From an uncultured bacterium (GTDB taxonomy: Bacteria; UBA8481), in contig CAZWVM010000001.1 in the NCBI GenBank assembly GCA_964637705.1, forward strand, positions 29,985 to 93,984: a stretch of DNA of 64,000 nucleotides, read 5' to 3'. A model generated the notes under the pieces. The model was not told where the DNA came from, did no database searches, and worked only from the letters and a program-made list of their open reading frames with translations. The translations under genes were made by a program, and so were the position numbers. Shown here piece after piece: positions 1-63,270 of this stretch (the stretch's first letter is position 1; every line of letters begins with the position of its first letter).

Positions 1-2688
1 GTCGATCATCGCGAACCGTTCCGAGGTCAGCCCGGGGCGTCCCCGGTACCCACGTGCCACGCCGTCTCCCCCGATGACGAGGTCGCCGGGAAGGCCGACC
101 GGGACCGGCTGCCCGGCGGCATCCAGGACGCGGACGATCGTCCCGCCGATCGGGCGGCCGATCGGGACGACGGGCACCGCCTCCCACGCCGACGGATGCC
201 CTTCGACCTTCATCGTCGTGGACCAGATGGTCGTCTCGGTCGGGCCGTACATGTTCCAGACCTCGCAGCCGGCGCGCAGGAGCTGCGCGACGAGGCGTCC
301 GGAGACGGCCTCTCCACCGACCAGGGCCTTGAAACCCGGGCGCGGTTTCCACCCGGCCATGAAGAGCATCTTCCAGGTGGCGGGCGTGGCCTGCATCACC
401 GTGGCGCCGCTCTCCCGCAGGAGCCCGGCGAGCCGCGCGGGCTCGGTCGCCTCGCGGCGCGTCGCGACCACGGTGCACGCCCCGGTGACGAGCGGGAGGA
501 AGAGCTCGAGGCCGGCGATGTCGAAGGAGACGGTGGTGACGGCGAGGAGCCGATCGTCGGCGCGCAGGCCCGGATCCTCCTGCATCGCGAGCAGGAAGTT
601 CGCGAGGTTGCGCTGCGTCACCTCGACGCCCTTGGGCGTGCCGGTCGATCCCGAGGTATAGATGATGTATGCGACGGCGTCGGGCCGGGCGGGCGGACGC
701 GGAGGCGCGTCGTTCCCGTCCGCGCACGCCTCCTCCAGCGTCATCGTGAGCGGGGCGCCGGGCGGCGCGGCTCCGTCGGCGAGCAGGAGTCGCGCGCCCG
801 CATCGCGGATCATGAAGTCGAGGCGATCGGCGGGAAAACCGGGATCGAGCGGCAGGTACGCGGCGCCGGCCTTCCAGATCCCGAGGAGCGCGGCCACCAT
901 GCGGCCCGTCCGCTCGGTGCAGACCGCCACCGTGTCCCCCGGGACGACGCCGCCCCGGGCCAGCCGCGCGGCCACGCGATCCGCGAGGCGTCCGAGCGCC
1001 CCGTACGTGAGCCGGTCCTGACCGCTCACGACCGCGATCGTGTCCGGGGAACGCTCGATGAGGCGCTCGATCATCTCGAGCGGCATCCGCTCGAGATCGT
1101 ACGCACCGTGCCGCGTCCCCCAGGTCTCGAGAAGCTCTCGGCGTTCACCGGCCGTGACATGCTCAAGCTGCGCGACCGGGCGGCGGGGGTTCGCGATCGC
1201 GTCGCGGATCAACGCGACCAGGTGCGTCCCCATGCGCCGGATGCGGGCGGGCGCGAAGAGATCGGTGCGATACTCGATGGCCGCCGCGATCCCGTCGGAT
1301 CCCTCGTGGAAGTTGAATGTCAGGTCGAATTTCGCGGTCCCCGTGTGCCCGCTCACCGCCTCCACCGCGACGTCCCGGAGCGCGAGACCGGAGGAGGCAG
1401 CCTGCTGGTTCTGCAGGATCACCATGACGTCGAAGAGCGGGGAGCGGCCGAGGTCGCGGTCGAGGGCGAGGTCGGAGACGAGGAGATCGAAGGGGTAGGA
1501 GGCGTGATCGAAGGCCTCGGCCGCGTTCCGCCCGACCGCGGCCAGGAAGTCCTCGAAGGGAAGAGCCCCGGGGATCGCGTCACGCAGGACGAGCGTGTTG
1601 ATGAAGAGACCGATGAGCGGTTCGATATCGACGTGGTCGCGGCCGGCGACGGGGGTTCCCACGAGGATCTCCGCGGCACCGGTGTAGCGATGGAGGAGCG
1701 CCTTGACCGCGGCGGCCAGGCCCATGAAGAGCGTGACACCGGCCTTGCGGCAGAGATCCTTCAGCCCGGCGGTCGTCGCGGCGTCGATCGGGAAGGTCTC
1801 CTCGGCGCCCGCGAAACCCTGCACGGCCGGGCGCGGGAAATCGGACGGAAGATCGAGAGCCGGGAGGGGCGCGGCCAGCCGGGCGGTCCAGTAGCGGCGC
1901 AGGTCGGCGAGACCGGCGGGATCATCGACGAGCCGGTTCCGCCAGGCCGCGTAGTCGCGGTATTGGACGCGAAGTTCCGGGAGGAGCGGCAGGCGGGCCT
2001 CCCGGATCGCGGCGTAGAACTCACCGATCTCCCTCCCGAGGACCGCAATGGAGACGCCGTCGGAGACGGCGTGGTGAAGTGAAACGGCGAGGAGATGGCG
2101 GGCGGGCGCCGCGCGATAGAGCTCGACGCCGAAGAGCGGCCCGCGCGCGAGATCGAAGGCGCGGCCGAGGAAGGCTCGCGCTCGCGCGACCGCCGCGGTC
2201 CCGGGATCGGGCTCACGGGTGAGGTCGAAGAAGGAGAAGAGAAGCTCGATCGACGGCGCCACACGCTGGAACGGCACGCCCTCGACCGACTCGATGACGG
2301 TCCGCAGCGACTCGTGGCGGGCCGCGATGCCCGCGAAGGCGGCGCGCAGGGCGTCGATGTCGAGGGGCCCGTTCAGCCAGTGCAGGAGCGGCACGTTGTA
2401 CGCGGCGGATGCGCCCTCGAGCCGCTCGAGGATCCAGAGTCGGCGCTGGCCCGGCGACGGTTCGTAGCGCGGTGCATCGGGCAGGCGCGGGATCTCCTCG
2501 CCCCCGGCACGCCCCCGCGCCTCGGCCTCGAGCCGGGCCAGGAGTTCCGCCTCGCAGGCCTTGATCCGGCCCTTGCGCTCGTCCGTCATAGCGCCCGCCG
2601 GCGCGCGGAAGCGGATGCGCCCTCCCTCGACCCACAACCGGATGCCCGCGCGCGCCATCTCCCCGAGGAGCTCGTCCACGCGGCTCAT
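1..2688 (-). CDS. NRPS, N-terminal 896 aa (partial; continues past window start). Domains: N-terminal beta-hairpin docking domain (TubC-like), condensation domain, adenylation domain through core A8.
   Basis: ATG at 2688..2686 overlaps the upstream PKS stop (ATGA). Hand translation of the reverse strand: MSRVDELLGEMARAGIRLWVEGGRIRFRAPAGAMTDERKGRIKACEAELLARLEAE (docking), PSPGQRRLWILERLEG (C1), RHESLRT, HHAVSDGVSI (C3), LTYGAL (A1), KAGAAYLPLDP (A2), YIIYTSGSTGTPKG (A3), NMYGPTETT (A5), GDLVIGGDGVARGYRGRPGLTSERF (A7/A8) reaching position 1. Not in ORF track because it has no in-window stop. Confidence 0.85.
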   Translation of the reverse strand, partial: MSRVDELLGEMARAGIRLWVEGGRIRFRAPAGAMTDERKGRIKACEAELLARLEAEARGRAGGEEIPRLPDAPRYEPSPGQRRLWILERLEGASAAYNVPLLHWLNGPLDIDALRAAFAGIAARHESLRTVIESVEGVPFQRVAPSIELLFSFFDLTREPDPGTAAVARARAFLGRAFDLARGPLFGVELYRAAPARHLLAVSLHHAVSDGVSIAVLGREIGEFYAAIREARLPLLPELRVQYRDYAAWRNRLVDDPAGLADLRRYWTARLAAPLPALDLPSDFPRPAVQGFAGAEETFPIDAATTAGLKDLCRKAGVTLFMGLAAAVKALLHRYTGAAEILVGTPVAGRDHVDIEPLIGLFINTLVLRDAIPGALPFEDFLAAVGRNAAEAFDHASYPFDLLVSDLALDRDLGRSPLFDVMVILQNQQAASSGLALRDVAVEAVSGHTGTAKFDLTFNFHEGSDGIAAAIEYRTDLFAPARIRRMGTHLVALIRDAIANPRRPVAQLEHVTAGERRELLETWGTRHGAYDLERMPLEMIERLIERSPDTIAVVSGQDRLTYGALGRLADRVAARLARGGVVPGDTVAVCTERTGRMVAALLGIWKAGAAYLPLDPGFPADRLDFMIRDAGARLLLADGAAPPGAPLTMTLEEACADGNDAPPRPPARPDAVAYIIYTSGSTGTPKGVEVTQRNLANFLLAMQEDPGLRADDRLLAVTTVSFDIAGLELFLPLVTGACTVVATRREATEPARLAGLLRESGATVMQATPATWKMLFMAGWKPRPGFKALVGGEAVSGRLVAQLLRAGCEVWNMYGPTETTIWSTTMKVEGHPSAWEAVPVVPIGRPIGGTIVRVLDAAGQPVPVGLPGDLVIGGDGVARGYRGRPGLTSERFAMID

Positions 2689-5600
2689 ATCGTGCCTTCC
2701 TCCTCGCCATCCGCGGGCGCGAGCAGGGCGTCGATGCGCGCGGCGAGCTTCGCCACGGTGCGGTCTTCGAAGAGGGCGCTGATCGGGAGCTTCACGCCGA
2801 GCGCCTTGCGGAGGCGCGCGACGACCTGAGCCCCCAGGAGCGAATCGCCCTGCAGGGCGAAGAAGTCGTCGTCGTCGCCGATCACGGCGCGGCCGAGAAG
2901 TTCCGACCAGATGCGCGCGACGATCCCCCGGGTGCCCGTCGGAGCGGCGGACGCGAGGACCGGCGTCTCCCCCGGAGCGCCGGCGATCTCCGCGAGGGAC
3001 TGGAGGCGTGAAGAGCCCGGGGCGAGGCTTGCGAGGCAGGCCTCGTGGTCGGAGAAGTCGAGCAGGAGCCGCCCGATATGCCGTCCCTTCGCCATCTCGC
3101 CGAAGGCCGCGGCGGCCGCGGCGGCGGAGAAGACGCGGAACGGGAGCGGCGGGAAATCCCCGGCCTCGATCCGGCCGCGGACCTCCGCCCAGGTCTCGTC
3201 GAAACCCGGCATGTCCGGGCCCACGTCGATCGCGATGAACGAGATCATCTTCGCGAAGCGCGCGAGCGAGATCGAGGTGCCGGCGAGGATGTCGCGCTTG
3301 CCCAATTCGAGGAAGCGGCCGCCCGGCGCGAGAACCGAGAGACCGAGATCGATCATCTCTCCTCCCAGGGAATTGAGCACAACGTCGACGCCCCGGCCGG
3401 CCGTTCGCTCCATCACGTCCCGTGCGAAAGAGCCGGTCCGGGAATCCATGACCGCGTCGATCCCGAGCGACCCCAGGTAATCCCGCTTCTCCCCGGTGCC
3501 GGCCGTGGCCAGGACGCGGGCGCCGACCGCGCGGGCCACGTTCACGGCCGCGAGCCCGACGCCACCGGCGGCCGAGTGGACGAGAACGGTCTCGCCGCGG
3601 CGCAGGTTCCCGCGCCGCACCAGGGCGGTGTAAGCCGTCATGTACGCGGCGGGCATCGTGGCGGCCTCCTCGAGGGAGAGCCCGGCGGGAACCGGAGCGA
3701 CCCGGGAGGCGGGCGCGGTCATGAAGAGGCGGGAAGCGCCGTTGGAGAAGGCCATGACGCGGTCGCCCGGGGCGACGGTCGTGACGCCCGGGCCGACGCG
3801 CGCGACGGTCCCGGCGCACTCGAGGCCGAAGCGCCAGCGGAGACCGGGCACGTCCGGCAACAGGTTGAGGGCGTAGAGGGTCTCGATGAAATTGAGGGCG
3901 ACGTGCTTGACCTCGATCTCGACCTCGCCCGGGCCGGGCTCGGGCCGCGGCGCCGACGCGAGTCCCATCGCATCGAACGAGCCGCGAACGGACAGCTCGA
4001 GCGCCGCGTTCTCCGGTCGCGCCGCGCCGGGAGCGGTCTCCACGCGGCGCAGGGCGTACCCCTCCGCCTCGAGAACCGGGCGGCCGCCATCGTCGGTCAC
4101 GCGGACCGCGTATGTCGCGGACTCGTCACCGGCCGGACCGGTCGCGTGCGCCGCGGCGCGCAGGCGTCCCTCGGCCGTTCCGTGGAAGCGCACGCGCGCG
4201 TAGGAGAACGGCAGGCGCGCGGAGCCGGCGGGGGCCGCGTGGATCGGGAGGAAACCGGTGGCGTTGTCGAGCAGGGCGGGATGCAGCGCGAAGGCGGCGG
4301 CCTCCTCGCGGTACGCCTCCGGCATCGCGAGCATCGCGGTTCCACGCGACCCGTCACCCGTGAAACGAACCTCCTCGATATTCGACCAGCGGGGCCCGAA
4401 TCCTTCCATCCGCGCGTGGAATTCCGGGGGCGCGTCATGGAACGTGCCGTGAGACGCCGCGGAGACGTCATCGGGGCGGGGCTTTTCATCCGCGGATCGC
4501 ATCACCTCGCCGCGGGCATGGAGTCGCCAGGATGCCTCCGCCTTCGGTGTCGATGAACTGGCGACGAAGAAGTCGCAGGACCCGGCGCGCTCCACCAGGA
4601 TCGTCCGCACCTCGCGCTCCTCCCCCGGATCCAGGACCAGCGGCTGGAGGAAGACCGCATCGCGGATCTCGACCGGACCCTCCCCTTTCATCTCGGCGAA
4701 GGCGGCGCGCGCCATCTCGAGATAGGCGGTGCCGACGAGCACGGGACGACCTTCGAGGCGGTGATCGTCGAGGAGACCGAGGTTCCCCGCCGAGAATCGG
4801 GCGCGGAAGTGAACCGCACCGTTCTCCTCGAGCCGCTCGCCCAGGAGCGGATGCGCCACCGGGCGGGCGACGGTGCGGGGAGGAATCGGTTCCGGCGAGA
4901 CGATGACCTCCGGCCCGAGCCGGCGGCGCAGGATCGCGCCGAGCACCTCCACGCCGGCGCCGGACCAGCCGCGCCGCCGGATCTCCCCGGCAATCCGCCT
5001 CTTCTCCTCCGCCGGCATGGCCGCCTGAGCGATCATCCCGAGGTCCTGCCAGAACCCCCACGCGATCGAGACGGCATAGGTTCCGGTCCTGCGCGCGAAG
5101 CGACGCGTCCAGGCGTCGAGCGCGGCGTTCGCGGCAACGTAATCGGCCTGCCCCGCCACCGGGATGCGAGTGGCGAGCGACGAGCAGGAGACGAGGAACT
5201 CGGGCGGGGACGAGGCGAGGGCCTCCTCGAGAGCGCGCGCCCCTCCGAGCTTTGGAGCGAAGACCGCGGCCGAGCCGTCCGTCGTCATGTCCCGGAGAAG
5301 CGCACCGCCGATGATGCCCGCGGTGTGGATCACGCCGACGAGCGGTCCCTGTTCTCGGGCGCGGGCCACGAGGGCGAAGACCGCGTGCGCGTCGGAGATG
5401 TCCACCGTCTCGATCTCGACCGTGGCGCCTCGTCGCCGGATCGCGTCCAGCCTCTCGCGTACCGCGCGGCCCGCCTCCCCTCCCGGAAGCACCGCCCGGT
5501 CGGCGAGAACGATCCGCGCCCGGCAATGACGCGCGATCCACTCGGCGAAGGCCAGTCCCATCGAACCGAGTCCGCCGGTGACGAGATAGACGCCGCCGTC

Positions 5601-8600
5601 GCGCCACGGCTCGAAGGTCGCGGTTCCGTTCCCGATGCGATGCGCATCGGGGAGTCGGCGGCGGCCCGCGCGATACGAGACGACCGGTTCGGTCTCGTCC
5701 GCGTCGAGGATCTCGTCCACGAGGCATCGCAACGTCTCCTCGTCCGCGCGGTCGATGCCGATCATCCGGCACGAGACGGCGGGATACTCGAGGGGCAGGA
5801 CGCGAAGGATTCCCTGGAGCGCGGCCTGCCCGGGCGAATCCTCCATGCGGGGGGCGACCGCCACGAGCCGGCACGGCCGGCTCCCGGCCCGTTCTCCCAG
5901 CGCTCGTGCCAGGCCGGCCAGCCGCCCATGAACGCGCGCGGGATCCGATTCATCCGCGCCCGCGAGGAAGACGAGTCGATCGGGGAGCGGATCGCCGAGA
6001 CAATCCGGCAGCGCGTCCGCGGTGCCGCCGCGCTCAAAGGAAACCCGCGTGACCACGGCGCCGCGCTTCGCGAGCGCGGCCGCCAGCGCGTCGCCGATTC
6101 CCTCCTCGGTCTCGACAACGGCCACGCGCCCGGCCTCCGCGACGGGAACGGGCGGTAATGCCTCGACCCAGGCCGGCTCGTAGAGCCAGGTCGCGACATC
6201 CGGTCCCGGCTCGACCGGCGCCGATACCTCCGGGCGATGCGGAGGTTCGATCCAGAACCGGCGACGCTCGAAGGGCGTCGTCGCCAGCGGCAGGCGGCGA
6301 CGCGACCCCGCCGGCTCCGCCGCCGCGTCGATCTCGACGCCGGCGACCCAGAGTTGGCCGGTCGTCCTGGCGAAGAACGCGGAGTCGTCGATCGGGTCCT
6401 CGGGATGGCGGATCGACGAGAGGACCGTGCAGGCCGATGCGGCGGGGTGGCGGGCGACCGGAGCGGCGAGAGTCCGGCCGGGTCCGATCTCGAGGAACAC
6501 CGCGCCCGGGTGCCGGCGCGCGAGCGCGGCGATCCCGTCGGAGAACCGGACGGGCGCGCGGAGGTGGCGCGCCCAGTAGTCGGGAGATGTCGCTTCCGCG
6601 GGATCCATCGGTGCGCCGGTGACGTTCGAGACGAGGGAGATCTTCGGCGGCGCGAGGGGCAGGCCCGCGACGACCTCGCGGAAGGGGCCCGTGATCGCAT
6701 CCATGAGCGGGGAGTGCGCCGCGCGATCGATCTCCACGGGCCGGCACTCGATCTCGTCCACCTCCGCGCGCTTCCGGAAATCCTCGACGGCCCCGGGATC
6801 GCCCGAGAGGACGCACATCCCGGGCGTCGTCATGACGGCCACCGCGAGATCACGGGAGGCTCCGAGGCGCGCGATCACTTCCTCCTCCGGGAGCGGGACG
6901 GCGAGCATGGCGCCCGGACGGGTCGAGCGGATGAGTCGTCCGCGCTCGGCCATCAGGCGCACTCCCTCTTCGGGCGAGAAGACACCGGCGGCGCAAGCGG
7001 CCGCGTATTCGCCGGCGCTGTGGCCCATCAGGGCCACCGGTCGGACGCCCCGCGATGCCCAGAGGCGAACCAGGGCGACCTGGAGGGCGAAGACCGCGGG
7101 CTGGGTCCACTCGATTCGGTGCACATCGTCGCCCATGATGATCTCGCGGATATCCCGTTTCGCGGTGGCTGACAGCGCCGCCGCGATCCCGTCGAGCGCC
7201 TCGCGGAAGACGGGTTCGTTCTCGTAGAGGCCGCGGCCCATGCCGGGATACTGCCCGCCGTGCCCGGAAAAGAGAAAGACAACCGGCGGCGTCGCAGACG
7301 CGGGCGGCACAGACGCGGGCGTCCCAGACGCAGGCGTCCCAGGCGCGGGCGGCACAGACGCAGGCGTCGTGTTCGACACGACGTGCTCCGCGTCGCGACA
7401 TCGAAGGTGGCGCGCGGCCTCGGCCGCGTCGCGCGCCACGACGACGCGACGGAACGGGAACCGGGCGCGGCCGGTTTGGAGCGTCCAGGCGGCATCCGCG
7501 AGCACGGACGGGTTCCCGTCGAGGCCGTCCAGCGACGCCGCCAGCCGGCCGGTCAGCGACTCCAGCGAGGAGGCCGATCGCGCCGAGATCGGAAGCCATT
7601 GCCACGGCTCCCGGGCGACTCCGGCCGCGGCGGACACGGATCCGCCGTGCGTCCCGCCCGCGTACTCCTCCAGCACCGCGTGCGCATTCGTGCCGCCCAG
7701 TCCGAACGAAGAGACTCCGGCCCGACGCGGAATCCCCCCCGTTTCCCACGGCACCGCCTTCGCCGCGACATGGAACGGGCTCGTCCCGAAGGCGCATTCC
7801 GGGTTGGGTGAGCGGAAGTGGAGCGTGGGGAAGACGCGGCGGTTCTCGAGCATGAGAACGGTCTTGATGAAGCCGGCCACGCCCGCCGCCTCGTCGAGGT
7901 GACCGAAGTTGGACTTCACCGACCCGATGGCGCAGTAACCGGTGCGGGTCGTCTTCTCCCGGAAGACGCGCGCCAGGGCGGCCAGCTCGATCGGATCGCC
8001 GACCCGCGTGCCGGTGCCGTGCGCCTCGACGTACGTGATCGTCGCCGGATCGACCTCGGCCGCGGCCAGGGCCAGCGCAATGGCATCGGCCTGGCCGTCC
8101 ACGCCCGGCGCGGTGAAGCCGATCTTGGCGTTCCCGTCGTTGTTGATCGCGCTGCCGCGCACGACGGCGCGAATCCGGTCGCCGTCGGCGACGGCCTCGT
8201 CGAGGCGCTTGAGGAGGACGACGCCGGCCCCGTTGCCGCTGATCGTCCCCTCCGCCGCCGCGTCGAAGGGACGGCAGTGCCCGTCGGGCGAAAGGATGCC
8301 GTCCGCGGCATAGAGGTAACCCTGGTCCTGCGGCAGCTGCACCGCGACGCCGCCGGCGAGCGCCATGTCGCACTCGTAGTTGAGCAGCGACTGGCAGGCC
8401 AGGTGGACGGCGACGAGCGAGGAGGAGCAGGCGCAGTTGACGTTGACGCTCGGCCCGCGCAGCCCGAGCTTGTACGAGACGCGGGTCGGGACGAAATGGT
8501 TGTTGTTGGCCATGAGCACCTGGAGCGGCGCGACGAACTCGAGGGCCCGCGGATTGCCGTGGAGGTGGTGGAGCAGGTACGTCGAGAGGTTGGCGGCGGC

Positions 8601-8951
8601 GAAGACGCCGATCTTCCGCCGGCACCGGGCCGGATCGATGCCGGCCGACTCGAGGCAGGTCCATGCCTCCTCGAGGAAGACGCGGTGCTGGGGGTCCATG
8701 ATCTCGGCCTCGCGCGGCGGGATCCCGAAGAAGTCCGCATCGAAATCCTCGATGCCCTCGAGCGCCGCGCAGGCCGGGACGTAGGCGGGATCGCGGCGGA
8801 CGGATTCCGGCACCCCGGCCGCGGCCAGTTCCTCGTCGGTGAAGGTGCGGATCGCCTCGCGCCCCTCCTCGAGGAGCCGCCGGTAGGCCTCGACGTCCGG
8901 CGCACCGGGGAAACGGCAGGCCATGCCGATGACCGCGATGAAATGGTTCAT
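2685..8951 (-). CDS. Type I PKS module, 2088 aa: KS-AT-KR(psiKR+KRc)-DH-ER-ACP
   Basis: ORF track 2685..8951. KS: GMACRFPG...CSSSLV...HGTGT. AT: GHSAGEYAAACAAGV with AAHS motif. KR: YLVTGGLGSMG...SSLATRIPVAGQADYVAANAALDAW. DH: HPLLGERLE...LDDHRLEGRPVLVGTAYLEMA. ER: VLVHSAAGGVGLAAVNVARAVGARV. ACP: ALQGDSLLGAQVV. Approximate domain coordinates: KR ~5050-6240, DH ~4030-4860, ER ~3010-3945, ACP ~2725-2955. Confidence 0.9.
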   Translation of the reverse strand: MNHFIAVIGMACRFPGAPDVEAYRRLLEEGREAIRTFTDEELAAAGVPESVRRDPAYVPACAALEGIEDFDADFFGIPPREAEIMDPQHRVFLEEAWTCLESAGIDPARCRRKIGVFAAANLSTYLLHHLHGNPRALEFVAPLQVLMANNNHFVPTRVSYKLGLRGPSVNVNCACSSSLVAVHLACQSLLNYECDMALAGGVAVQLPQDQGYLYAADGILSPDGHCRPFDAAAEGTISGNGAGVVLLKRLDEAVADGDRIRAVVRGSAINNDGNAKIGFTAPGVDGQADAIALALAAAEVDPATITYVEAHGTGTRVGDPIELAALARVFREKTTRTGYCAIGSVKSNFGHLDEAAGVAGFIKTVLMLENRRVFPTLHFRSPNPECAFGTSPFHVAAKAVPWETGGIPRRAGVSSFGLGGTNAHAVLEEYAGGTHGGSVSAAAGVAREPWQWLPISARSASSLESLTGRLAASLDGLDGNPSVLADAAWTLQTGRARFPFRRVVVARDAAEAARHLRCRDAEHVVSNTTPASVPPAPGTPASGTPASVPPASATPPVVFLFSGHGGQYPGMGRGLYENEPVFREALDGIAAALSATAKRDIREIIMGDDVHRIEWTQPAVFALQVALVRLWASRGVRPVALMGHSAGEYAAACAAGVFSPEEGVRLMAERGRLIRSTRPGAMLAVPLPEEEVIARLGASRDLAVAVMTTPGMCVLSGDPGAVEDFRKRAEVDEIECRPVEIDRAAHSPLMDAITGPFREVVAGLPLAPPKISLVSNVTGAPMDPAEATSPDYWARHLRAPVRFSDGIAALARRHPGAVFLEIGPGRTLAAPVARHPAASACTVLSSIRHPEDPIDDSAFFARTTGQLWVAGVEIDAAAEPAGSRRRLPLATTPFERRRFWIEPPHRPEVSAPVEPGPDVATWLYEPAWVEALPPVPVAEAGRVAVVETEEGIGDALAAALAKRGAVVTRVSFERGGTADALPDCLGDPLPDRLVFLAGADESDPARVHGRLAGLARALGERAGSRPCRLVAVAPRMEDSPGQAALQGILRVLPLEYPAVSCRMIGIDRADEETLRCLVDEILDADETEPVVSYRAGRRRLPDAHRIGNGTATFEPWRDGGVYLVTGGLGSMGLAFAEWIARHCRARIVLADRAVLPGGEAGRAVRERLDAIRRRGATVEIETVDISDAHAVFALVARAREQGPLVGVIHTAGIIGGALLRDMTTDGSAAVFAPKLGGARALEEALASSPPEFLVSCSSLATRIPVAGQADYVAANAALDAWTRRFARRTGTYAVSIAWGFWQDLGMIAQAAMPAEEKRRIAGEIRRRGWSGAGVEVLGAILRRRLGPEVIVSPEPIPPRTVARPVAHPLLGERLEENGAVHFRARFSAGNLGLLDDHRLEGRPVLVGTAYLEMARAAFAEMKGEGPVEIRDAVFLQPLVLDPGEEREVRTILVERAGSCDFFVASSSTPKAEASWRLHARGEVMRSADEKPRPDDVSAASHGTFHDAPPEFHARMEGFGPRWSNIEEVRFTGDGSRGTAMLAMPEAYREEAAAFALHPALLDNATGFLPIHAAPAGSARLPFSYARVRFHGTAEGRLRAAAHATGPAGDESATYAVRVTDDGGRPVLEAEGYALRRVETAPGAARPENAALELSVRGSFDAMGLASAPRPEPGPGEVEIEVKHVALNFIETLYALNLLPDVPGLRWRFGLECAGTVARVGPGVTTVAPGDRVMAFSNGASRLFMTAPASRVAPVPAGLSLEEAATMPAAYMTAYTALVRRGNLRRGETVLVHSAAGGVGLAAVNVARAVGARVLATAGTGEKRDYLGSLGIDAVMDSRTGSFARDVMERTAGRGVDVVLNSLGGEMIDLGLSVLAPGGRFLELGKRDILAGTSISLARFAKMISFIAIDVGPDMPGFDETWAEVRGRIEAGDFPPLPFRVFSAAAAAAAFGEMAKGRHIGRLLLDFSDHEACLASLAPGSSRLQSLAEIAGAPGETPVLASAAPTGTRGIVARIWSELLGRAVIGDDDDFFALQGDSLLGAQVVARLRKALGVKLPISALFEDRTVAKLAARIDALLAPADGEEEGTI
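7283..7375 (-). repeat. Degenerate ~15-18-bp tandem repeats (CAGACGCRGGCGKC) encoding a Pro/Ala/Ser/Thr linker (PASVPPAPGTPASGTPASVPPASATPP) between KS and AT
   Basis: Seen directly; low-complexity interdomain linker. Confidence 0.7.
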
Positions 8952-11900
8952 GGCCTCCTCCTCCTCTCCCGTGCCGCGCGCGCCTTCGCGGCGCGCTCGT
9001 CCGCTTCCGCCGTCACGCCGGAAGTCCCGGCCGCGCCCTCGAGGAACGACGCCAGCGCGCTCACCGTCGGATGCTGGTACAGGGCGATGAGCGGGAAGGT
9101 GCGGGCGAGCCGTTCTTTCAGTGTCGCATGGGCGCGGACGATGAGCAACGACTGCGCGCCGATGTCGAAGAAATTCTCGTGGCGGCCGACGCGCGCCGCG
9201 TTCAGTAGACCGGCGAAGATCTCGGCCACGAGGCGCTCCGTGTCCGAGCAGGGCTCCTCGGCGCCGCCGGAGCTCTCGAGGCGGGACGCGTCCGGATCGG
9301 GAAGCCGCCGGCGGTCGATCTTGCCGTGCTCGGTCAGCGGAAAGGACTCGATCGGCACGAAGACCGCGGGCACCATGTAATCCGGAAGCTTCGCCTTCAT
9401 GAAGGAGCGGAGCGCCGTCGGCTCCGGCCGGATGCCGGGCGCGGGCACGAGGTAGGCGACGAGCCGCGTCCCGTCCGGGCTCGTGCCCGGGACGATGAGC
9501 GCCTCGCGGACGTCGGCGTGGGCGGCGAGCACCGACTCGATCTCCCCGAGCTCGATCCGGAAGCCGCGGATCTTGACCTGGTGATCAATCCGGCCGAGAT
9601 ACTCGATGTCGCCGTCGGGCCGGTAACGCGCCAGGTCGCCCGAGCGGTAATGGATCGCCGCGCCGCCCTCCTCGAGCGCCACGAACTTCTCGGCCGTCAG
9701 TTCCGGCCGGTTCAGGTAGCCGTTCGAGACCCCCGCGCCCGCGACATACATCTCGCCGGCGATCCCGATCGGCACGGGCTGCCGCCGGGCATCGAGGATG
9801 CGCACCGTGAGATCGGGGATCGGGACGCCGATCACGCTCCCCTTGCCGTCGAGATCCGCCCGGCCCAGCGCGCGATACGTGACGTGGACCGTCGTCTCGG
9901 TGATGCCATACATGTTCACGAGGAGCGGCTCGCGGTCGCCGAAACGGTCGAACCACGGCCGGAGGTTCTCGAGGTCGAGCGCCTCGCCTCCGAAGACGAC
10001 CGTGCGAAGCGACGGTCGATCCGGGGCGGCCGTGGCCACGGGGATGAGCTGCCGGAATGCCGACGGCGTCTGGTTCAGGACCGTCACCCCCTCGGCGACG
10101 AGCAGGCGATGGAACTCCGCCGGGGAGCGGCTGATCCCGAAGGGGACGACGACGACGCGGCCGCCGTGGAGCAGTGCGCCCCAGATCTCCCAGACCGAGA
10201 AGTCGAAGGCCACGGAGTGGAAGAGCGTCCAGACATCGCTTTCATCGAACCCGAACCAGTGCCTCGTCGCGGAGAAGAGACGGGTGACGTTGCCATGGGT
10301 CACGAGGCAGCCCTTGGGCTGGCCCGTCGAGCCGGAGGTATAGATGACGTAGGCCACGTCGGCGCGCGCGACGGCTATGCCCGGGCGCGTCGCCTCCTCG
10401 TCCGCGAAGGCCGCGCCCCGGTCCATGAGCACGGTCGCGGCCGTGGCGCCGGCGAGCCGATCGAGAAGTTTCTCCTCCGTGACGATGACCGGCGCTTCCG
10501 CATCCTCCATGATGAAGCGCAGCCGCTCCGGGGGATAGGCCGGGTCCATCGGGACATAGGCCGCGCCGGCCTTCAGAATCCCGAGGAGCCCGACGACGAG
10601 ATCCGGCGAGCGCTCGAGGAAGAGACCGACCCGCCGGCCCGGCGCCACGCCGCGCCTCGCCAGGTGCCGGGCCAGCCGGTTCGAGATCTCGTCGAGCTCG
10701 CGGTAGGTCATCTCCCGGCGCGCCCCGACCGGTTCCCCCGATTCGGCGACCGGCTGGAAGGAGACGGCGACGCGATCCGGCGTCCGGCCGGCCTGCTCCT
10801 CGAACCAGGCGACGAGCGTCTCCGGCGGCGTCGGCAACGGGCCGGGACGCGGGTTGAAGTCGACGAGGACCCGATGCCGTTCGGCCTCGGGCAGGATCGG
10901 GAGGTCCCCGATCGCGCACTCCGGGTCCCGGGCCGCACCCCCCAGCAGTTCGAGCAGGTGGTCGCGCATCCGCTCGATCCGGTCGCGGTCGAAGAGGTCG
11001 GTGTTGAAGACGATCGAGGCCGCGAGACCGTCCTCACGCTCTTCGAAGTTGAACTGCAGGTCGTACTTGCTGACCGGGTAGTCGTCGAAGAAGGTCTTCA
11101 CGGCGACGCCCGGCATCGCGATCTCCACGCGCCCCGCGTTCTGCATCACCGCGACGACGTCGAAGAGCGGCATGCGCGAGACGTCCCGCTTCAGGTCGAG
11201 ATCGTCCACGAGCCGGTCGAATGGATACTCCTGCCGCTCGTACGCCTCGGTCGTGGTGGCGCGCACCCGGTCGAGGAGACGCGCGAAGGATTCACCGGCC
11301 CGCACGTCGTCGCGCAGGGCGAGCATGTTGATGAAGAACCCGATCTGGTCCTCGAGATCGGCATGGGTCCGCCCCGCAACCGGCGTCCCGACGACGATAT
11401 CCTCCTGGCCGGTGTAACGGTGGAGCAGGACCTTCACGCCGGCCAGGAGCGTCATGAAGAGGGTGGCCGTGCGGGCGCGCGCGAGCGCCGCGAGCCGATC
11501 CGCGACGTCACGCCCGACCCGGAAGGAAATCGCAGCGCCGTTGTAGGTCTTGACCGGAGGCCGCGGACGATCGGCGGGCAGGTCGAGAACCGGCAAGGTC
11601 CCCCCGAACCGATCCCGCCAGTAGCGCCGATCCCCGTCGGTCTCCTCCGCGCCGAGGCGCGCGGTCTGCCACGCGGCATAATCGCGGTACTGGATCCGGA
11701 GCGGCTTCCACGACGGCGCCCGCCCCTCGACGAGCTCGCGGTAGCGCCCGAGGAACTCGCGCGCCAGGACCCCGAGGCTCCAGTCGTCCGAGACGATGTG
11801 GTGCATGGTGAGGAGGAGCACGTGGCGGTCCGCGGCGAGCCGCAGGAGGCCGACCCGGATGAGCGGGCCCGTCTCCAGTTCGAAGGCGGCGGCCGCGTCG

Positions 11901-14900
11901 CGGGCCGCCCGCTCGCGGGCCTCGGCCTCGGGATCGGGCCCGCCGGACAGATCGACGACCTCGATCCGCGCCTCGCCCGGGGCCCTGACCTTCTGCCGCG
12001 CCGCCTCGCCCTCGAGGACGAAGGTCGTCCGCAGGGACTCGTGCCGCGCCACCGTATCGGCGTAGGCTTGTTCCAGGAGGTCGATCCTCAACGGTCCCTC
12101 CAGGAGCAGCGCGGCCGGCATGTTGTATGCGACCGATCCCTCCTCGAGGCGCGAGAGGAGCCAGAGCCGGCGCTGGGCGTGGGAGAGCGGATACGACTCC
12201 GCCTCGGGCGTGCGCGCGATGCCGCGGTACTCGGCGCGCTCCATCGTGTCGATGCGCGCCGCGAGCTCGGCCACGGTCGGACGACCGAAGATCTCGCGGA
12301 GCGGCAGTTCCACGCCGAGATCGCGGTTGACGCGCGAGACGACGAGCGTGGCCTTGAGGCTGTGGCCTCCGAGATCGAAGAAGTTGTCGCGGGCCCCGAC
12401 CCGCTCGACGCCGAGCACCTCGCCCCAGATCGCGGCGAGCCGCGCCTCCGTCCCGGCCGCGGGCTCGACGAAGACGTCGCCGCGCGCGACGCGGGTCCGC
12501 GAGGGCGACGGCAGGCGGCGACGATCGACCTTGCCGGCCGGAGTCTGGGGCAGGGACCCGAGGAGCACGAAGTCCGAGGGCACCATGTAGGCCGGAACCT
12601 TGTCGCGCAGGAAGTCCTTCCACTCCGGCACCAGGTCGCGCCCGAGCGCCTCGCGCAGCGGATCGTTCGCGAAGTGGCTCCACCCGACGGCCGCATCCGG
12701 CGGGTCGGTCATGAGCGGCGCAAACGGAAGACCGCGGCGCACGAAGACAGCGTCGAAGGCGCCGTCCGGGGCGCCCGAGGCGAGGCTGAGCCGTACCTCG
12801 AACGGCGTTTCATCGGCCAGGCGCCAGAGGTCCTCGGGCTCGATGCCGTCCACGCCCGCCCTCCCCTGTTCCTCGCGAAGCGCCGCCACGGTCGAGGGAC
12901 GCTCGCGCGAGGTCATGAGCCGGAGAGCCCGTTCCTCGGGAGCGACCCGCGCATTCGCGATGCCGCGCAGGGCCACCACGTCGTCGGTCGCCTTCGAGAG
13001 CCGGTCGCGGATCGCCTCGGCGGAGGGCCGGCCTTCGTCGGACCAGTCGCGCCAGGGGGGCCGCGACTCGGTCGTCGGCTCGCCGAGGCGCAGGATGACG
13101 TCGTAGCGGAAGCGCGTCATCTCGTTCAGGCCGCGCCCCCGCTTCGGGAGAATCTCGACCGAGCGGATCGCGGGCGTGCGCCGCTTCAAGGCGAGGAAGA
13201 ACGCCGGGTCCACCGCCATCTCCTGCTCCGCCTCCATCTGACGCCGGACCCGGTCGGCCAGCTCGCCGGTGGCGAGGGACTCCTCGCTCTTATAGAGCTG
13301 GACCGAGGCGTGGAAGGTCTCGAGCATCGGCAGGCTCCGGACGTCACCGACGAAGATCGAGCCGCCGGGCGAGAGCGCGGCAATCGCGCCCTCGAGCACC
13401 TTCACGAGGTACTCGGGGCCCGGGAAATACTGCACCACGGAAGACAGGATGACCGTATCGACCGAGCCGCGCGGGATGTCGGCGAGGTCGTCGGCACGAC
13501 GCGCCTCGAGGACGGCGCGGTCGAGCCCCGGGACCCGCCGGCCCAGCTCCTCGTCGGCGCGCAGTTCCTTCAACCGGTCGATGGCGACCTGCGAGAGGTC
13601 GATGCCGCGGTAGGATTCGAGGTGCGGGAGGAGCGGGAACATGATGAGCCCGGTGCCGCAACCGATCTCGAGCACGCGGCGCGGCGCGAGGCCGAGGATG
13701 CGGCCGGTCGTGCCGTCGACGTATTCCCTCATCTCCTCGCGCGGGAGCGGGGCGTTGGTGTAGTTCGAATCCCAGCCGATGACGTTGAAGGTCGGATCGC
13801 CGTAGGTGAGCGACTCCTGGTAGCTCTTCTCGTGGAGTTCCTCCCAGAGCTTCACCTGCGCGGCGCGGATCCGTTCGATCCGTTCCCGGTTCGCCTCCCG
13901 GTCGGGCACGACGTAGGCGACGAGGCGGCGATCCCCCGGCTCGTCCTCCCTCACCACGACCGCGTTTTCGCGGACGGCCACGTGCCGGCCGAGCACGGCC
14001 TCGATCTCGCCCAGCTCGATCCGGAAGCCCCGGATCTTCACCTGGTCGTCCATGCGCGAGAGGCACTCGAGCAGGCCGTCCGGCCTCCAGTACCCGATGT
14101 CTCCGGTCCGGTAGAGGACGTCGCCCCGCCCCTCGCCGGCGTACGGGTTCGGGACGAAGGCGGCCCGCGTCTTCTCCTCGTCGCGCCAGTATCCCTCGCC
14201 GACGCCGATCCCGGAGACGGCGATCTCGCCGCGCACGCCGGGCGGCACAAGCCGGAGGTTCCGATCGAGGACGTACATCGTGAGGTTCGGCTGCGCGGTT
14301 CCGACCGTGACCGTCGTCGCCGCCGCGGAAAGCGGCGCCTCGATGATCGACTCGCAGGTGTCGTCGGCGGCCTCGGTCGGGCCGTAGGCGTTGACCAGGC
14401 GCTTGTCCGGGAAGAGCGAGAGCCAGCGGTTGACGAGCGCCACGGAGACGGCCTCGCCGGTGGCCATGGCCCACTCCAGGGCGGGCAGGCGGCGCTCCTC
14501 GGGCGAGAGTCGCGCCGCGTGGTCGAGGAGCGCATTCATGACCACCGGCACGAGCTCGATCACGGTGACCGCTTCGCGCCGGATGAGCTCGAAGAGCCGC
14601 TCGGCGTCGCAGACCGTCTCGTAGTCCGCGATCACGGTCCGGCCGCCGCAGAGAAGGGGCCCGATGAACTGCCAGACGGAGATGTCCGACGAAGCGGGGG
14701 CGCTCTGGAGAAAGGCCGAATCCCGATGGAAGGCCATGCGCCGGAACTGCCCGTAGACATGGTTGATCTTGCCGTCGTGCCGGATGATGGCGCCCTTGGG
14801 GAGTCCGGTCGAGCCCGAGGTGTAGAGCATGTAGGCCCGGTCCGAGGCGAGGTTGACGTGGTCGGGTGTCGTCGCGGGCTGTCGGGCGATCTCCTCCGAC

Positions 14901-17900
14901 CCGAGGAAGACGGCGCGCACGGCTTCCTTCGCCGCGAGGCAGCCGAGGCGCGTCCAGGCCGGCTCGCTCGTCAGGACCAGCGGGACGCCCGAGTTCTCCA
15001 GCATGTACGCGATGCGATCCTCGGGATAACCCGGGTCGATCGGCACGTATGCGGCGCCCGCCTTGAGGATGCCCACGAGGGCCGCGAGGAAGCCGATGCC
15101 GCGCGGCTCGAGGATCCCGACGAAGTCGTTGCGCCGGATCCCGGCGCCCCGGAGGAGGTGCGCGATGCGGTTCGCCTCGGCATCGAGCTCCGCGTAGGTC
15201 ACCCGGCGCCCGTTGTGCACGGCCGCGATCCGGCCGGGACCGGCCGCGACCTCGTCCTCGAAGAGCTCGTGCAGGGTGCGATGAACCGGGAACGCGGCGC
15301 GCTCGCCCGTGCCCATCGCGAGCATCGCCCGCTCCCCGGCGGCGTCCAGTACCGGGATCTCTGAGGCGCGGAGCCCGGGCCGGTCCGCGACGGCCGCCAG
15401 GAGCGTCTCGAAGTGCCGCACGAGCCGCCGGGCCGTCGATTCGTCGAAGAGGTCGGTGCTGTACTCGAGGACGCCGAGGAGCCCGCCCCCCGTCTCCCAC
15501 ATGTCGAGGACGAGATCGAACTGGGCGGTCGTGCGGCCGAACTCGATCGTCGCGACGTCGAGCCCCGGCATCTCGAGATTTCTCATCGGCGCGTTCTGGA
15601 GCGCGAACATCACCTGGAAGACCGGGTTGCGGCTGAGATCGCGTTCCGGCTGGAGTTCGTCGACGAGGCGCTCGAAGGGTAGGTCCTGGTGGGCGTAGGC
15701 ATCGAGCGCGGCCTGCCGGGCCCGCTCGACCAGCGCGACGAAGGACGGGTCGTCCCCGAGATCGAGGCGCAGCGCGAGCGTGTTGACGAAGAAGCCGACG
15801 AGCGGCTCGACCTCGGAGCGCGTGCGGTTGGCGATCGGCGTGCCGATGACGATGTCGGCCTGGCCCGAGAGGCGGGAGAGCAGGACGCTGAAGGAGGCCT
15901 GGAGCGTCATGAAGAGCGTGGCCGACAAGCGGCGCGACAGGTCGTCGAGGCGGCGCCTCACCCCCGGATCGATCTCGAAGCGGATCGATCCGCCCCGGTA
16001 GCTCTGGAGCGCCGGGCGCGGCCGGTCGGTCGGCAGCTCGAGCTCGGCCGGGATCCCGGCGAGACGCTCCTTCCAGTAGTCCCATTGCTCCCGGTACCGT
16101 TCACCCGCGAGCCACTCCCTCTGCCAGGCCGCGAAGTCGGCGTACTGGACCGCGAGCGGCGCGAGCGGCGAGGGACGGCCGGCGCGGAAGGCCTCGTAGA
16201 GGAAGGAGAGCTCGCGGACGAGAATCCCCATGGACCAGCCGTCGGCCGCGATGTGATGCATGGTCAGGAAGAGCACCCACGCGGCCTCGCCCGTCGCGAG
16301 AAGCTTCGCGCGCAGGAGGGGGCCGCGCTCCAGGTCGAAGACGCCCCGCGCCTCCTCGGCCCCGAGCCGCCGCACCTCGGCCTCGCCATCGACCGCTCCG
16401 CGCACGTCGATCCGCTCGAGCGCGAAGGACCCCTCCGGGTGGATGACCTGGACCGTCCGCCCTCCCTCCTCGCGGTACGTCGTCCTCAGGATCTCGTGCC
16501 GCCGCACGATCTCGGCCAGGCTTCCTTCCAGCGCGGCCTCATCGAGGTCTCCGCGGATCGCGAGCGCCACGGCGACGTTGTAGAAGGGATTGTCCGGCTC
16601 GAGTCGGTTGAGGAACCAGAGCCGCTCCTGGGCGTAGGAGAGCGGAAGGGACTCGGCGCGCGAACGAACGATCATCGGCATCGGCCCGGCCGGGCTCGCC
16701 GCGACCGGGCCGGCCTCTTCCTCGACGGCCGCGGCCAGTTGCTCCACGCGGGAGCCGGAGAAAATCCGACGGAGCGGCAGGTCGATGGAGAAGCGCTTCC
16801 GGAGCCGCGAGACGAGCTGGGTGGCGAGGAGCGAGTTGCCCCCGATCGCGAAGAAGTCGTCGCGCAGGCCGACCCGTTCCCGGCCCAGCACCTCGGCGCA
16901 GATCGCGGCGACCGCCGCCTCCGTCTCGCTCCGCGGCGGCACGAACCCCTGCTCCGCGTCGGAGCGGCCGGGCGCCGGGAGCGCCCGCCGGTCGAGCTTG
17001 CCGTTCGCGGTGATGGGCAGGGCGTCGAGCACGACGATGTGAGACGGCACCATGAAGTCCGGCAGAACCCGGGCGAGATCCTCCCGGCCCGGCCCGGCCC
17101 TCGATACGTCCCGGCGGACGACGTAGGCGACGATCTCCTTCCGGCCCGGCGCGTCCTCGCGCACCAGGACGCACGCCTCCCGGGCGTTCTCGTGGCGGAG
17201 CAGCGCGGCCTCGATCTCCACCGGTTCGACCCGGAAGCCGCGGATCTTGGCCTGGTCGTCGAAGCGGCCGAGAAACTCGATCGCTCCGCCCGCGAGCCAG
17301 CGCGCGCGATCGCCGGTCCGGTAGAGGCGATGGCTCTCACCGTCGAGCGAAACCTCGAAGAACCGTTCCGCGGTCAATTCGGGCCGGTTCACGTACCCGA
17401 TCGCCAGGCCGTCCCCGCCGGTGTACAGCTCGCCCGGCACGCCGACCGGGACGCGGTTCCGGCGGGCATCGAGGATGAAGACCGAGGTGTTCGCGATGGG
17501 GCGGCCGATCGGGATCGAGCCCGCGTATTCCCGTCCCCGCTCCGCCTCGTGGCAGCACGTGAACGTCGTGTTCTCGGTGGGGCCGTAGCCGTTGACGAAG
17601 CGGCACGTCAACTCCGCCAGCACGCGATTCACGTGCGGCACGGATAGGACGTCGCCGCCGGCCAGGAGCCATTTCAGGGAGCGAAGGTCCTCGAGGCACT
17701 CGTCCACGACGAGGCTGAAAAGGCTCGCGGTGAGCCAGAGCGTCGTGACGCCGTGATCGCGGACGAGCGCGCCGATCTCGGCGGGCGTCAAGAGTCCCGG
17801 CGGCGCGATCACCAGCCGCCCGCCATTGAGGAGCGGGCCCCAGATCTCGAGCGTGGAGGCGTCGAAGGAGATCGGGGCGAGCTGGAGAAAGACATCCGCG

Positions 17901-19948: not shown

Positions 19949-22900
19949 CGGTCGTCACCCGGTCCCGGCGCGGAAGCCAGCAGGGCGCGGGCCTCCTCTT
20001 CCGTCAGGGATTCCACCTCGGCCAGCAGGTCCTCGAGGCCGTCTGTCGATCCAAGGTCCGGGGCGCAGGCCGCCTGGGCGGCCACGGTCGGCTTCCCGAA
20101 GAACTCGCGGATCGTCATCGCGACACCCGCCTCCTCGGCGAGGCGAGCCACGATGCGCATGGCCAGGAGCGAATGCCCGCCGAGTTCAAAGAAGTTGTCG
20201 TGCACGCCGACCTTCTCCAGGCCCAGGACGTCGGCCCAGACCGCGGCCACGGCCCGCTCCGCCTCGTTGCGCGGCGCGACCCGCTCCCGGTCCCCCGGCG
20301 ACGAGACCGGCTCCGGCAGGGCGCGGCGGTCGATCTTGCCGGAGGGAGTCAGCGGCAGAGCGTCGAGTCGGACGAACCACGAGGGCACCATGTAGTCGGG
20401 CAGGACGGCGGCCGCATGCGACCTCAGTGCCTCGTCCGACACGGGGCCGTCCTCGACGATGTAGGCGGCCAGGGCGTCCCCGGTTTCCCGGCGGCGCGCG
20501 GCGACCACGGCATCCCTGACCGCGGGATGGTCCCTGAGCCGGGCCTCGATCTCACCGGGTTCGATCCGGAAGCCGCGCACCTTGACCTGGAAATCGATCC
20601 GGCCGAGGAACTCGATCGTGCCGTCGGGCCGCCAGCGTCCACGATCCCCCGTGCGGTACATCATCGATCCGGTATCGCCCGCGAAGGGATCGGGAACGAA
20701 CCGGGCCTCGGTCAGTTCCGGATCGCCGACGTAGCCCGCCCCGACGCCGACACCACCGACCACGATCTCGCCCGGAGCCCCGATCGGCACCGGTTTCAAA
20801 TCGCCGTCCAGGACATACATGCGCGTATTCGGAACCGGGCACCCGATGGGCACGACGGGCAGCGGCACCGCGGTCGCCCGGGGGACTTCGCACCAACCGC
20901 AGATGTCGGTGCACTCGGTGGGCCCGTAATTATTGAAGAGACGCGCCGCGCAGGAGGGGTTCTTGAACCAGGGCCAGAGGCGGGCCGCGTCGACCGGTTC
21001 TCCTCCGAGGTGAACCGCCCTAAGCGAGGACAGCCGGCTCCATGACCCGGGGCCGATGTTTTCGAGGAGCGCGTACAGCATGCTCGGGGTGCCGTTGAAG
21101 AGCGTCACCGATTCCTTCTCGACGAGGGCCGCGGTCTCGCGCGCGTCGAACGGACCGTCGGGGCGGAAGAGCACGCGACCGCCGACGAGCAAGGGAGCGA
21201 AGAGATTCTTCTGGGTGAGATCGAAGCTCAAGGACGTGACCACGAGACCCGCGGTCGAAGCGTCGAGCGCGCTCGCCTCGATGTACCAGTTGAGCAGGTT
21301 GACGAAGCCGCGATGGCGCACGGCCGCGCCCTTGGGACGACCGGTGGAACCCGAGGTGTAGATGGCATACACCAGGTCGTCCTCTTCCCCCTCGGGCAGA
21401 CCGACCGGTTCATCGCCACCGGTCTCGACCCGCGACGCGTCGATCACGGGGCCGGTGAAGACACCGTCGGGAATCTCGTGCCTCCCGTCGGTCACGGCCG
21501 CGACCGCGCCGCAGTCCGAGAGCATGAACGCGACGCGATCGCGCGGATAGTCCGGGCTCACGGGAACATACGCGGCGCGGGTCTTCAGGATCCCGAGGAT
21601 CCCCACGAGGGCGAGCTCGGAACGGCCGGCGAAAAGCGCGACCTTGTCGCCGGGTTTCACGCCCCGGTCCACGAGCCGCGCCGCCAGGCGCGCGGACCGT
21701 CGTTCCAGCTCGGCGTAAGTCAGGCGCCCGTCACCGCACGCGACCGCGATCGCATCGGGCGTGCGCGCGGCCTGGGCCGCGACGAGCCGGGTGACGGTTC
21801 CGCGCGGGCTCTCGCCGCCCCGATCGTTGAATCCATGAAGCACCGCCGCGCGCTCCTCCGGCGGCAGCGCCAGCAGGTTCCCGAGAGGCGCGGCGGGATC
21901 GGCGGCGGCGAGGAAGAGCAACAGGTGGTCGATGATGCGCCGGATGGTCCGGGCGTCCAGAATCGCCGCGTTGTAGAAGAAGATGACGGAGAGATCGTCC
22001 GCGCGCTCCTCGACCTCCAGGTCGATGTCGAATTTCACGCCGGAAGAATCGAGCGGGAAGTGCGCACACGTGAGCCCCGCCATCGACATCTCCACGGGAC
22101 CGCCGGGAAGCCAGCTCACCGAGGCCTGGAAGAGGGGCGCCGCATCGAGATGGCGGTCCGGCTGGAGCGCGTCCACGACGCGCTCGAACGGGGCCTCGCG
22201 GTTCGCGTAGGCCTCCAGCGCGGCCTGGCGCGCACTCTCGACGAGCGCCGCGAAGGTCCGGTCGCGGGCGACCTCGATCCGCAGGACGAGCGTGTTCACG
22301 AAGAGGCCGAGCAGGGATTCGGTGCCGGGTTCCAGCCGGTTCTCCACGGGGAAGCCGATGCAGACCTCCTCCTGCCCGCCGAACCGCGCCAGCACCGCGG
22401 CCCAGGCCGCCGCGAAGATCATGAAGAGGCTGGCGCCGGCCGACGAAGCCATCGCGCGGAGACGAGCGGTCACCGCGGGATCGATCGTGAATGTTTCCCT
22501 CGCCCCGTGGGGGATCGAGCCGGCGCGCGGCCGGTCGAGGGGCAGGTCGAGGAGCTGCGGCGCGCCGGCGAGCCGCTGCTTCCAGTAATCGACCTGGGCC
22601 TCGAACGCCCCCGTCTCGACGCGCTGTCGCATGGCGACGGCATAATCCGCGTAGGCGAAGGAACCCGGGGGCGCCGATGGTTCCCGGCCCACGCGTCGCG
22701 CCTCGTAGGCGGCCGCCAGTTCGTCGCGAAGGACCCGGACGGACCTCCCGTCCGCGATGATGTGATGCAGGACGAGGAGCAGGACGTGATCCTCATCGTC
22801 CAGGCGATACAGGCGGGCGCGCAGGAGCGGGGCGTCCGTCAGCGTGAAGGGAATCGAGGCCTCGAGCGCGGCCAGCCTCCGCGCCTCGCGCTCGGCCGCC

Positions 22901-35469: not shown

Positions 35470-39875
<4,406 letters not shown>

Positions 39876-39886
39876 CGACGCGCCGC

Positions 39887-48174: not shown

Positions 48175-48240
48175 ATATCTCCTGAAAATTCTGCGCCCGG
48201 CGGCGTAAAAAGCAAGCGGAATTATCGTCGGGGATAATCA

Positions 48241-48269
48241 TTGACTCCCTCGAGGCCCGGGCGTACATT
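48241..48269 (+). promoter_or_regulatory. Candidate sigma70-type promoter TTGACT-N17-TACATT for the DUF697-small TM-secretin operon
   Basis: Read directly in the divergent 48175-48347 gap, ~80 nt upstream of the GGAGG-preceded ATG at 48348. Confidence 0.3.
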
Positions 48270-63254: not shown

Positions 63255-63270
63255 CCGGAGCCGCCTCTTC

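Follow-up and report, generated by a model that had tools for sequence, protein, structure and literature searches.

The 64,000-nucleotide stretch of DNA analysed here, referred to as the window (positions 29,985 to 93,984 of the forward strand of contig CAZWVM010000001.1, GenBank assembly GCA_964637705.1, from an uncultured bacterium of the GTDB lineage UBA8481), carries on its minus strand, at positions 2685..8951, a gene for a free-standing, single-module type I polyketide synthase (PKS) of 2088 amino acids (aa) without a thioesterase (TE). As judged from the list of open reading frames (ORFs), the translation and a Pfam scan, its domains follow each other in the order ketosynthase (KS), acyltransferase (AT), structural ketoreductase subdomain (psiKR), catalytic ketoreductase (KR), dehydratase (DH), enoylreductase (ER) and acyl carrier protein (ACP). 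This KR-DH-ER order is neither unique to the protein nor new: it is how the modules of a recognised lineage are normally laid out, as in ClbB of colibactin and TubD of tubulysin biosynthesis. The protein is very probably a TubD/ClbB-type cis-AT PKS with a single, fully reducing module, which is located at an interface leading from a nonribosomal peptide synthetase (NRPS) to a PKS and back to an NRPS, and which inherited its domain order from an old and widespread module lineage without any local rearrangement.

Domain layout and predicted structure

The textbook order of a fully reducing module is DH-psiKR-ER-KR, with the ER inserted between psiKR and the catalytic KR. The preliminary description of the sequence had placed a complete psiKR and KR before the DH, the DH before the ER and the ACP last, and this arrangement is borne out by the order of the Pfam matches, with all catalytic motifs intact; the Pfam coordinates also confirm the departure from the textbook layout. 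The motifs quoted there are found at TGGLGSMG 1125-1132, HPLLGERLE 1367-1375, DDHRLEGRP 1395-1403, GTAYLEMA 1407-1414 and HSAAGGVGLAAV 1792-1803, and the reading frame agrees with the profile of the GC content at third codon positions (GC3 frame plot). By the respective E-values, the domain order is far beyond chance. Mammalian fatty acid synthase (FAS), the PKSs resembling mycocerosic acid synthase (MAS) and module 4 of 6-deoxyerythronolide B synthase (DEBS) are built from the same four folds and catalyse the same reactions, and the ER of the protein shares 40-47% identity with those of canonical modules. However, the canonical proteins carry an N-terminal DH and an ER between psiKR and KR, whereas in the protein described here psiKR directly abuts KR, the DH follows the KR, and the ER comes after the DH.

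All domains described below are encoded on the minus strand. The KS domain (aa 5-430; 7662..8939) is matched by the Pfam families ketoacyl-synt and Ketoacyl-synt_C at aa 5-379 (E 6e-71 and 2e-41) and contains the motifs CACSSS, EAHGTGT and KSNFGHL with the catalytic residues Cys175, His311 and His351. It is followed by the KS-AT linker (aa 431-555; 7287..7661), for which the families KAsynt_C_assoc, CurL-like_PKS_C and RhiE-like_linker are matched at aa 382-518, and by the AT domain (aa 556-850; 6402..7286; Acyl_transf_1 at aa 558-848, E 6e-54) with a GHSAGE motif around Ser645. The psiKR (aa 905-1118; 5598..6239) has no Pfam match, but is contiguous with the catalytic KR and shows a beta/alpha fold in an AlphaFold2 prediction. 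The catalytic KR (aa 1119-1310; 5022..5597; Pfam KR at aa 1120-1303, E 8e-45) carries the TGGLGSMG motif together with Lys1234, Ser1258, Tyr1271 and Asn1275, and is connected to the DH by a linker (aa 1311-1361; 4869..5021) with a conserved insert (EIRRRGWSGAGVEVL...) that is predicted to be helical. The DH domain (aa 1362-1645; 4017..4868) is recognised as PKS_DH_N (E 1e-22) and PS-DH (E 1.5e-19) at aa 1367-1641, starts with HPLLG and contains HxxxGxxxxV with the catalytic His1397, FGPRW, and HPALLD with Asp1562. The ER (aa 1651-1968; 3048..4001) is of the medium-chain dehydrogenase/reductase (MDR) type (ADH_N, ADH_zinc_N and ADH_zinc_N_2 at aa 1673-1964), the motif HSAAGGVGLAAV representing its NADPH site, and the ACP (aa 2005-2078; 2718..2939; PP-binding at aa 2011-2073, E 1e-15) contains GDSLL with Ser2037. 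The KS Cys-His-His triad, an integrated AT and the ACP serine are thus all present on one polypeptide, as in type I cis-AT modular PKSs. In an alignment of 28 sequences sharing the KR-DH order (A2), the TGGLGSMG motif and all four KR residues are invariant, as are His1397, His1557, Pro1558 and Asp1562 of the DH. No second KR was detected by Pfam after the ER, and the spacing of only about 40 residues between ER and ACP leaves no room for one.

The region aa 890-2088 was modelled with AlphaFold2 (mean pLDDT 76.5, pTM 0.54); the model is confident for the individual domains but unreliable in its inter-domain geometry. The psiKR, with block pLDDT values of mostly 75-92, forms a Rossmann-like beta/alpha subdomain joined to the catalytic KR, and the DH shows a beta-rich, double-hotdog-like fold. 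In a Foldseek comparison, the modelled KR portion matches EryKR1 (2fr0; target-normalised template modelling score, TMt, 0.78 over 465 columns) and TylKR1 (2z5l; TMt 0.77), both of which are complete two-subdomain KRs from KR-only modules, as well as the trans-AT KRs 4j1q and 5d2e. Since this portion superimposes on complete two-subdomain KRs, the KR is whole and uninterrupted by the ER, in line with the earlier claim that the ER is not nested inside it. Neither the sequence search nor the Foldseek fold search of the PDB yielded a solved structure with the KR-DH-ER order; all structures returned by the sequence search have the canonical DH-ER-KR order, and their similarity resides mainly in the ER. 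The whole model gave TM values of 0.22-0.25 against the modifying regions of MAS and FAS, a comparison which depends on residue order and on the unreliable inter-domain geometry. Taking these low values as a sign of a different architecture was considered and set aside, in view of the pTM of 0.54 and the uncertain geometry.

Distribution and origin of the KR-DH-ER order

The best full-length relative of the protein is TubD from Archangium disciforme (CAF05649.1; P0233 in the profile search described below), which is 40% identical in a single collinear alignment of 2111 columns covering the whole protein. TubD shows the same KS-AT-psiKR-KR-DH-ER-ACP order when mapped by the same domain procedure; its order rests on this mapping because no usable open paper on the domain order of TubD was found. 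The PKS module of TubD extends valine with a reduced C2 unit on the route to tubuvaline. Both proteins are placed between NRPS modules, and both cluster types use TubC-type N-terminal docking domains. In contrast to the free-standing protein of the window, TubD (3515 aa) continues downstream into a heterocyclising NRPS module, and its KR-DH linker is short, with 19 aa between the domain matches compared to 52, and lacks the helical insert. The AT specificity motif also differs, being HAFHS in TubD and ClbB, but RAAHS in the protein described here (aa 743-747; window 6711-6725). The rest of the cluster in the window, with its fatty acyl-AMP ligase (FAAL) start and many NRPS modules, is unlike the tubulysin cluster.

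ClbB (WP_001518711.1; the gene was taken from E. coli CFT073 and Nissle 1917) is more distant than TubD, but exhibits the same order of reducing domains in the arrangement C-A-T-KS-AT-KR-DH-ER-(T), where C, A and T denote condensation, adenylation and thiolation domains. Mapping of the individual domains onto ClbB gave identities of 46% for KS, 35% for AT, 28% for KR, 26% for DH and 42% for ER, and the two proteins align collinearly in two segments, with 38% identity for the KS-AT part and 30% for the reducing region. Unlike the protein of the window, ClbB contains a fused upstream NRPS module and a short KR-DH linker without the insert, and its PKS module is followed by another PKS (ClbC) rather than by an NRPS. 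The colibactin literature indeed writes the ClbB PKS module as KS-AT-KR-DH-ER-T and demonstrates its addition of one fully processed malonyl unit after alanine. Literature searches did not find the string KS-AT-KR-DH-ER-ACP, nor anything on domain order paired with ClbB, and where the term KR-DH-ER is used, it mostly denotes the catalytic rather than the linear order. The order itself, the lack of a KR after the ER, the collinear homology and the position downstream of an NRPS module are all features which the protein has in common with TubD and ClbB.

A view beyond these two systems was obtained with a profile built from an alignment (A1) of the KR-DH-ER stretch of the protein and its four closest relatives (P0001-P0004), in which the KR-DH-ER junctions are conserved. 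The profile was searched exhaustively against 1.84 billion representatives of 50%-identity clusters, and the best 150 representatives were examined. Adjacent KR, DH and ER domains were present in 50 of them, counting TubD, P0001 and the protein itself (which appears as P0121 within the collection of 15 billion proteins), with gaps of 9-97 aa between KR and DH (one outlier of 526) and of 6-38 aa between DH and ER. The remainder are canonical multi-module synthases which score via separate pieces. Several of the KR-DH-ER representatives are fused to an upstream C-A-T module or to a downstream C domain. A scan of genomes with the protein alone gave no relative, while a scan with A1 revealed collinear KR-DH-ER loci in Competibacteraceae, Opitutaceae, Latescibacterota, Gemmatimonadaceae, Verrucomicrobiae, Acidobacteria and Cellvibrionaceae, corresponding to at least seven bacterial lineages. 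In all four of these loci with both flanks readable (L005, L006, L008 and L020), NRPS genes are located on both sides of the KS-AT-KR-DH-ER-ACP gene. The same is true for L010, although its ER-ACP part is encoded in a separate reading frame, and two loci that are cut upstream (L003 and L028) have NRPS genes downstream. The preliminary description had proposed to check whether homologous modules share the order, and had named its common occurrence in a known PKS family as an argument against its own reading; homologous modules do share it. The order is therefore non-canonical with respect to the textbook, as claimed, but, being shared by ClbB, TubD, a third of the best representatives and genomes of several phyla, it is not rare.

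The ER sequences contain further information on the origin of these modules. Almost all nearest-neighbour slots of the ERs from KR-DH-ER modules (152 of 156) are occupied by ERs from other such modules, and the mean identity is 52% within this group compared to 41% to the ERs of canonical modules. The ER of the protein described here groups with those of the other KR-DH-ER modules. This grouping points to an established lineage rather than to repeated local shuffling of domains. Within the family, the KR-DH linkers fall into two groups of about 9-29 and about 42-97 aa, the protein belonging to the long-linker subgroup. Its insert, for which two helices are predicted, is common to the five sequences of A1 and is gapped out in comparison with TubD and ClbB.

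More than 20 relatives of the protein (26-35% identity) have the composition KS-AT-KR-DH-ACP(-TE) and lack an ER. The same composition is known from the modules for the APD warhead of rakicidin and BE-43547 and from thalassospiramide biosynthesis, in which psiKR, KR and DH likewise follow each other in this order and the module comes immediately behind an NRPS module. A 2026 preprint on the rakicidin/BE-43547 warhead calls the KR-DH order after an NRPS module "unusual" and describes it as rare and as conserved in the compound family. These modules for vinylogous amino acids are often terminal with a TE and retain the double bond because they contain no ER, whereas the protein of the window possesses an ER with an intact NADPH motif.

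Two further arrangements were encountered in the course of the searches. Four proteins (P0007, P0221, P0256 and P0260) exhibit a different non-canonical order, KS-AT-ER-KR-DH-ACP, with the ER before the KR and the DH still after it; two of the four continue into a fused A-ACP unit downstream. Three loci from Flavobacterium or other Flavobacteriaceae (L013, L014 and L017) encode AT-less synthases of the trans-AT style, in which one protein ends with KS-DH-KR and the next starts with ER-KS; these were picked up by the genome scan but do not share the architecture.

Proposed chemistry and competing explanations

The domain content, the intact motifs and the NRPS-flanked position are observed, and the set of domains, together with what ClbB and TubD are known to produce, leads us to infer that the protein most likely extends a peptidyl chain by two carbons and reduces the extension fully, yielding a gamma-amino-acid unit. 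The peptidyl chain would be transferred from the final carrier domain of the three-module NRPS upstream to Cys175 of the KS, while a malonyl-type extender unit would be loaded by Ser645 of the AT onto Ser2037 of the ACP. Condensation would then generate a beta-keto-gamma-amino acyl-ACP, to be reduced by the KR (Lys1234, Ser1258, Tyr1271 and Asn1275), dehydrated by the DH (His1397 and Asp1562) and saturated by the ER. The resulting two-carbon homologated gamma-amino-acid unit would finally be accepted by the C domain of the NRPS that follows, a protein opening with a TubC-type docking domain.

Several observations weigh against this assignment. The RAAHS motif of the AT in place of HAFHS renders the extender unit uncertain, which may not be plain malonyl-CoA. 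In the DH, Val replaces the Pro that normally ends the HxxxGxxxxP motif, and the KR, read against the established motif rules, lacks both the LDD and the Trp stereochemistry motif. The hand-offs from and to the NRPSs are deduced from gene order, start/stop overlaps and the docking domain only. The ER neighbour set was gathered with the KR-DH-ER profile and is biased to such modules, and it describes nearest neighbours rather than a formal tree. Finally, papers on related KR-DH modules raise possible additional roles in vinylogous dehydration or epimerisation.

The latter points lead to the alternative that the module is not fully reducing, because one of its reducing domains is inactive or repurposed, for instance with the DH acting as a vinylogous dehydratase or aiding the epimerisation of an amino-acid carbon, so that a hydroxyl group or a double bond is kept. 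The deviating DH motif and the missing A-type and B-type motifs of the KR would fit such a scenario, as would the epimerisation during PKS elongation suspected in the literature for rhabdobranin, but the catalytic residues of KR and DH are all present and invariant in the family, the ER retains its NADPH motif, and the same domain set yields a fully processed unit in ClbB; this alternative is therefore considered unlikely. A different alternative, raised in the preliminary description as a possible refutation, is that the upstream "KR" just serves structure or docking, with the true KR located elsewhere, such as behind the ER. No point in support of it was found, and it is ruled out to the degree of a practically negligible chance by the invariant TGGLGSMG, Lys1234, Ser1258, Tyr1271 and Asn1275, by the Pfam KR match (E 8e-45), by the fit of the model to whole active KR structures, and by the missing Pfam match for a second KR in the roughly 40 residues between ER and ACP.

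It may also be asked whether the order arose by a one-off rearrangement in this very synthase, creating a new kind of beta-processing region. Its departure from DH-psiKR-ER-KR and the lack of a solved PDB structure with the order speak in favour, yet such an event is very improbable, since the order is shared by ClbB, TubD, 50 of the 150 representatives and seven lineages, with conserved junctions in A1. That these homologues are themselves mis-assembled is implausible for ClbB, as clbB occurs in 288 complete E. coli genomes. The succession of KR and DH is also known from other enzyme classes, namely the synthases of polyunsaturated fatty acids (PUFA) and the iterative enediyne PKSs (PKSE); one genome paper even calls KR-DH adjacency specific for PksE, and the NCBIfam model for PfaA (TIGR02813) matches the protein. 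The match to TIGR02813 is, however, confined to KS-AT and reaches 361 bits compared to a cut-off of 1010. There is no ACP between AT and KR, a cis ER is present, the single ACP is C-terminal, the gene stands in line within an NRPS/PKS assembly line with start/stop overlaps, and the best full-length relative is TubD, all of which makes an affiliation with these iterative enzymes hardly credible.

Gene neighbourhood and implications

As judged from the Pfam matches, all large genes of the window lie on the minus strand and constitute one hybrid assembly line. It begins with a FAAL-ACP-KS-AT-KR-ACP protein (40831-47280) and a KS-AT-KR-ACP protein (35466-39992), followed by an NRPS/PKS/NRPS protein of about 5170 aa (19945-~35469). 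The latter is listed as an ORF of 5357 aa (19945-36018), but most likely starts with the GTG at 35469, just before a TubC-type docking domain. The next gene codes for an NRPS with three C-A-T modules, one of them with a methyltransferase (8948..19948), whose stop codon overlaps the ATG of the PKS gene described here. The stop codon of the PKS gene is in turn overlapped by the ATG of a further NRPS gene (1..2688), which was identified by its TubC_N, Condensation and AMP-binding domains (Pfam), the frame plot and the translation, and which runs off the window. An ORF on the plus strand (196-2082) was rejected as the downstream gene, having no family match and being contradicted by the frame plot, which puts the real gene on the minus strand. 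With an NRPS protein on each side, the PKS represents an internal module between two NRPS proteins; placing it as the last module of the assembly line was rejected, because the NRPS gene in 1-2688 comes after it.

The overlaps of the PKS gene with both neighbours comprise four bases each (ATGA, at 8948-8951 and 2685-2688), and another four-base overlap of megasynthase genes is located at 35466-35469 (ATGA or GTGA in all three cases). Such overlaps suggest translational coupling of the megasynthase genes. TubC-type N-terminal docking domains (Pfam TubC_N) open two of the NRPS proteins, namely that encoded at 1-2688 and that starting at ~35320-35469 (minus strand); without being a tubulysin cluster, this one therefore relies on docking of the tubulysin style where a PKS is followed by an NRPS.

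Ordinary genes occupy the right part of the window; they code for a secretin, a periplasmic binding protein, an ABC transporter, an adenylate cyclase and release factor 3. Directly beyond the upstream end of the assembly-line genes, the GC content falls to 0.62-0.67, compared to about 0.71 before (positions 46000-50000 and 56000-58000), marking the border of the cluster, which adjoins the secretin gene (49174-50388). The fragment of the gene for peptide chain release factor 3 (63160-63999, plus strand) has its best relatives at about 66-78% identity, and the few with names come from Verrucomicrobiota (Opitutus, Pedosphaera, Limisphaerales), Armatimonadota (including Abditibacteriaceae) and Bacteroidota. 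The DNA may accordingly stem from a verrucomicrobium, although this assignment is uncertain.

Regarding the wider family, the protein adds one more example to a recognised lineage and does not establish a new principle. The main value of the analysis lies in the generalisation that the KR-DH-ER order extends across phyla, occurs between NRPS modules wherever both flanks are readable, and exists in forms with short and long linkers. Rules for annotation or engineering which assume a DH-ER-KR order would mis-describe these modules. It is conceivable, if rather doubtful, that KR-DH-ER modules including the one described here have a beta-processing region whose three-dimensional and dimeric arrangement is unlike that of FAS and MAS; the preliminary description had inferred a different topology of this chamber from the domain order. 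The helical KR-DH insert of about 50 residues in its subgroup could then add an element for dimerisation or docking, and such an arrangement may have evolved to suit gamma-amino substrates delivered by NRPSs. The question whether the linear order of the domains has a bearing on how reducing modules are built has also been raised in the 2026 preprint on the ER-less KR-DH relatives from rakicidin and BE-43547 biosynthesis.

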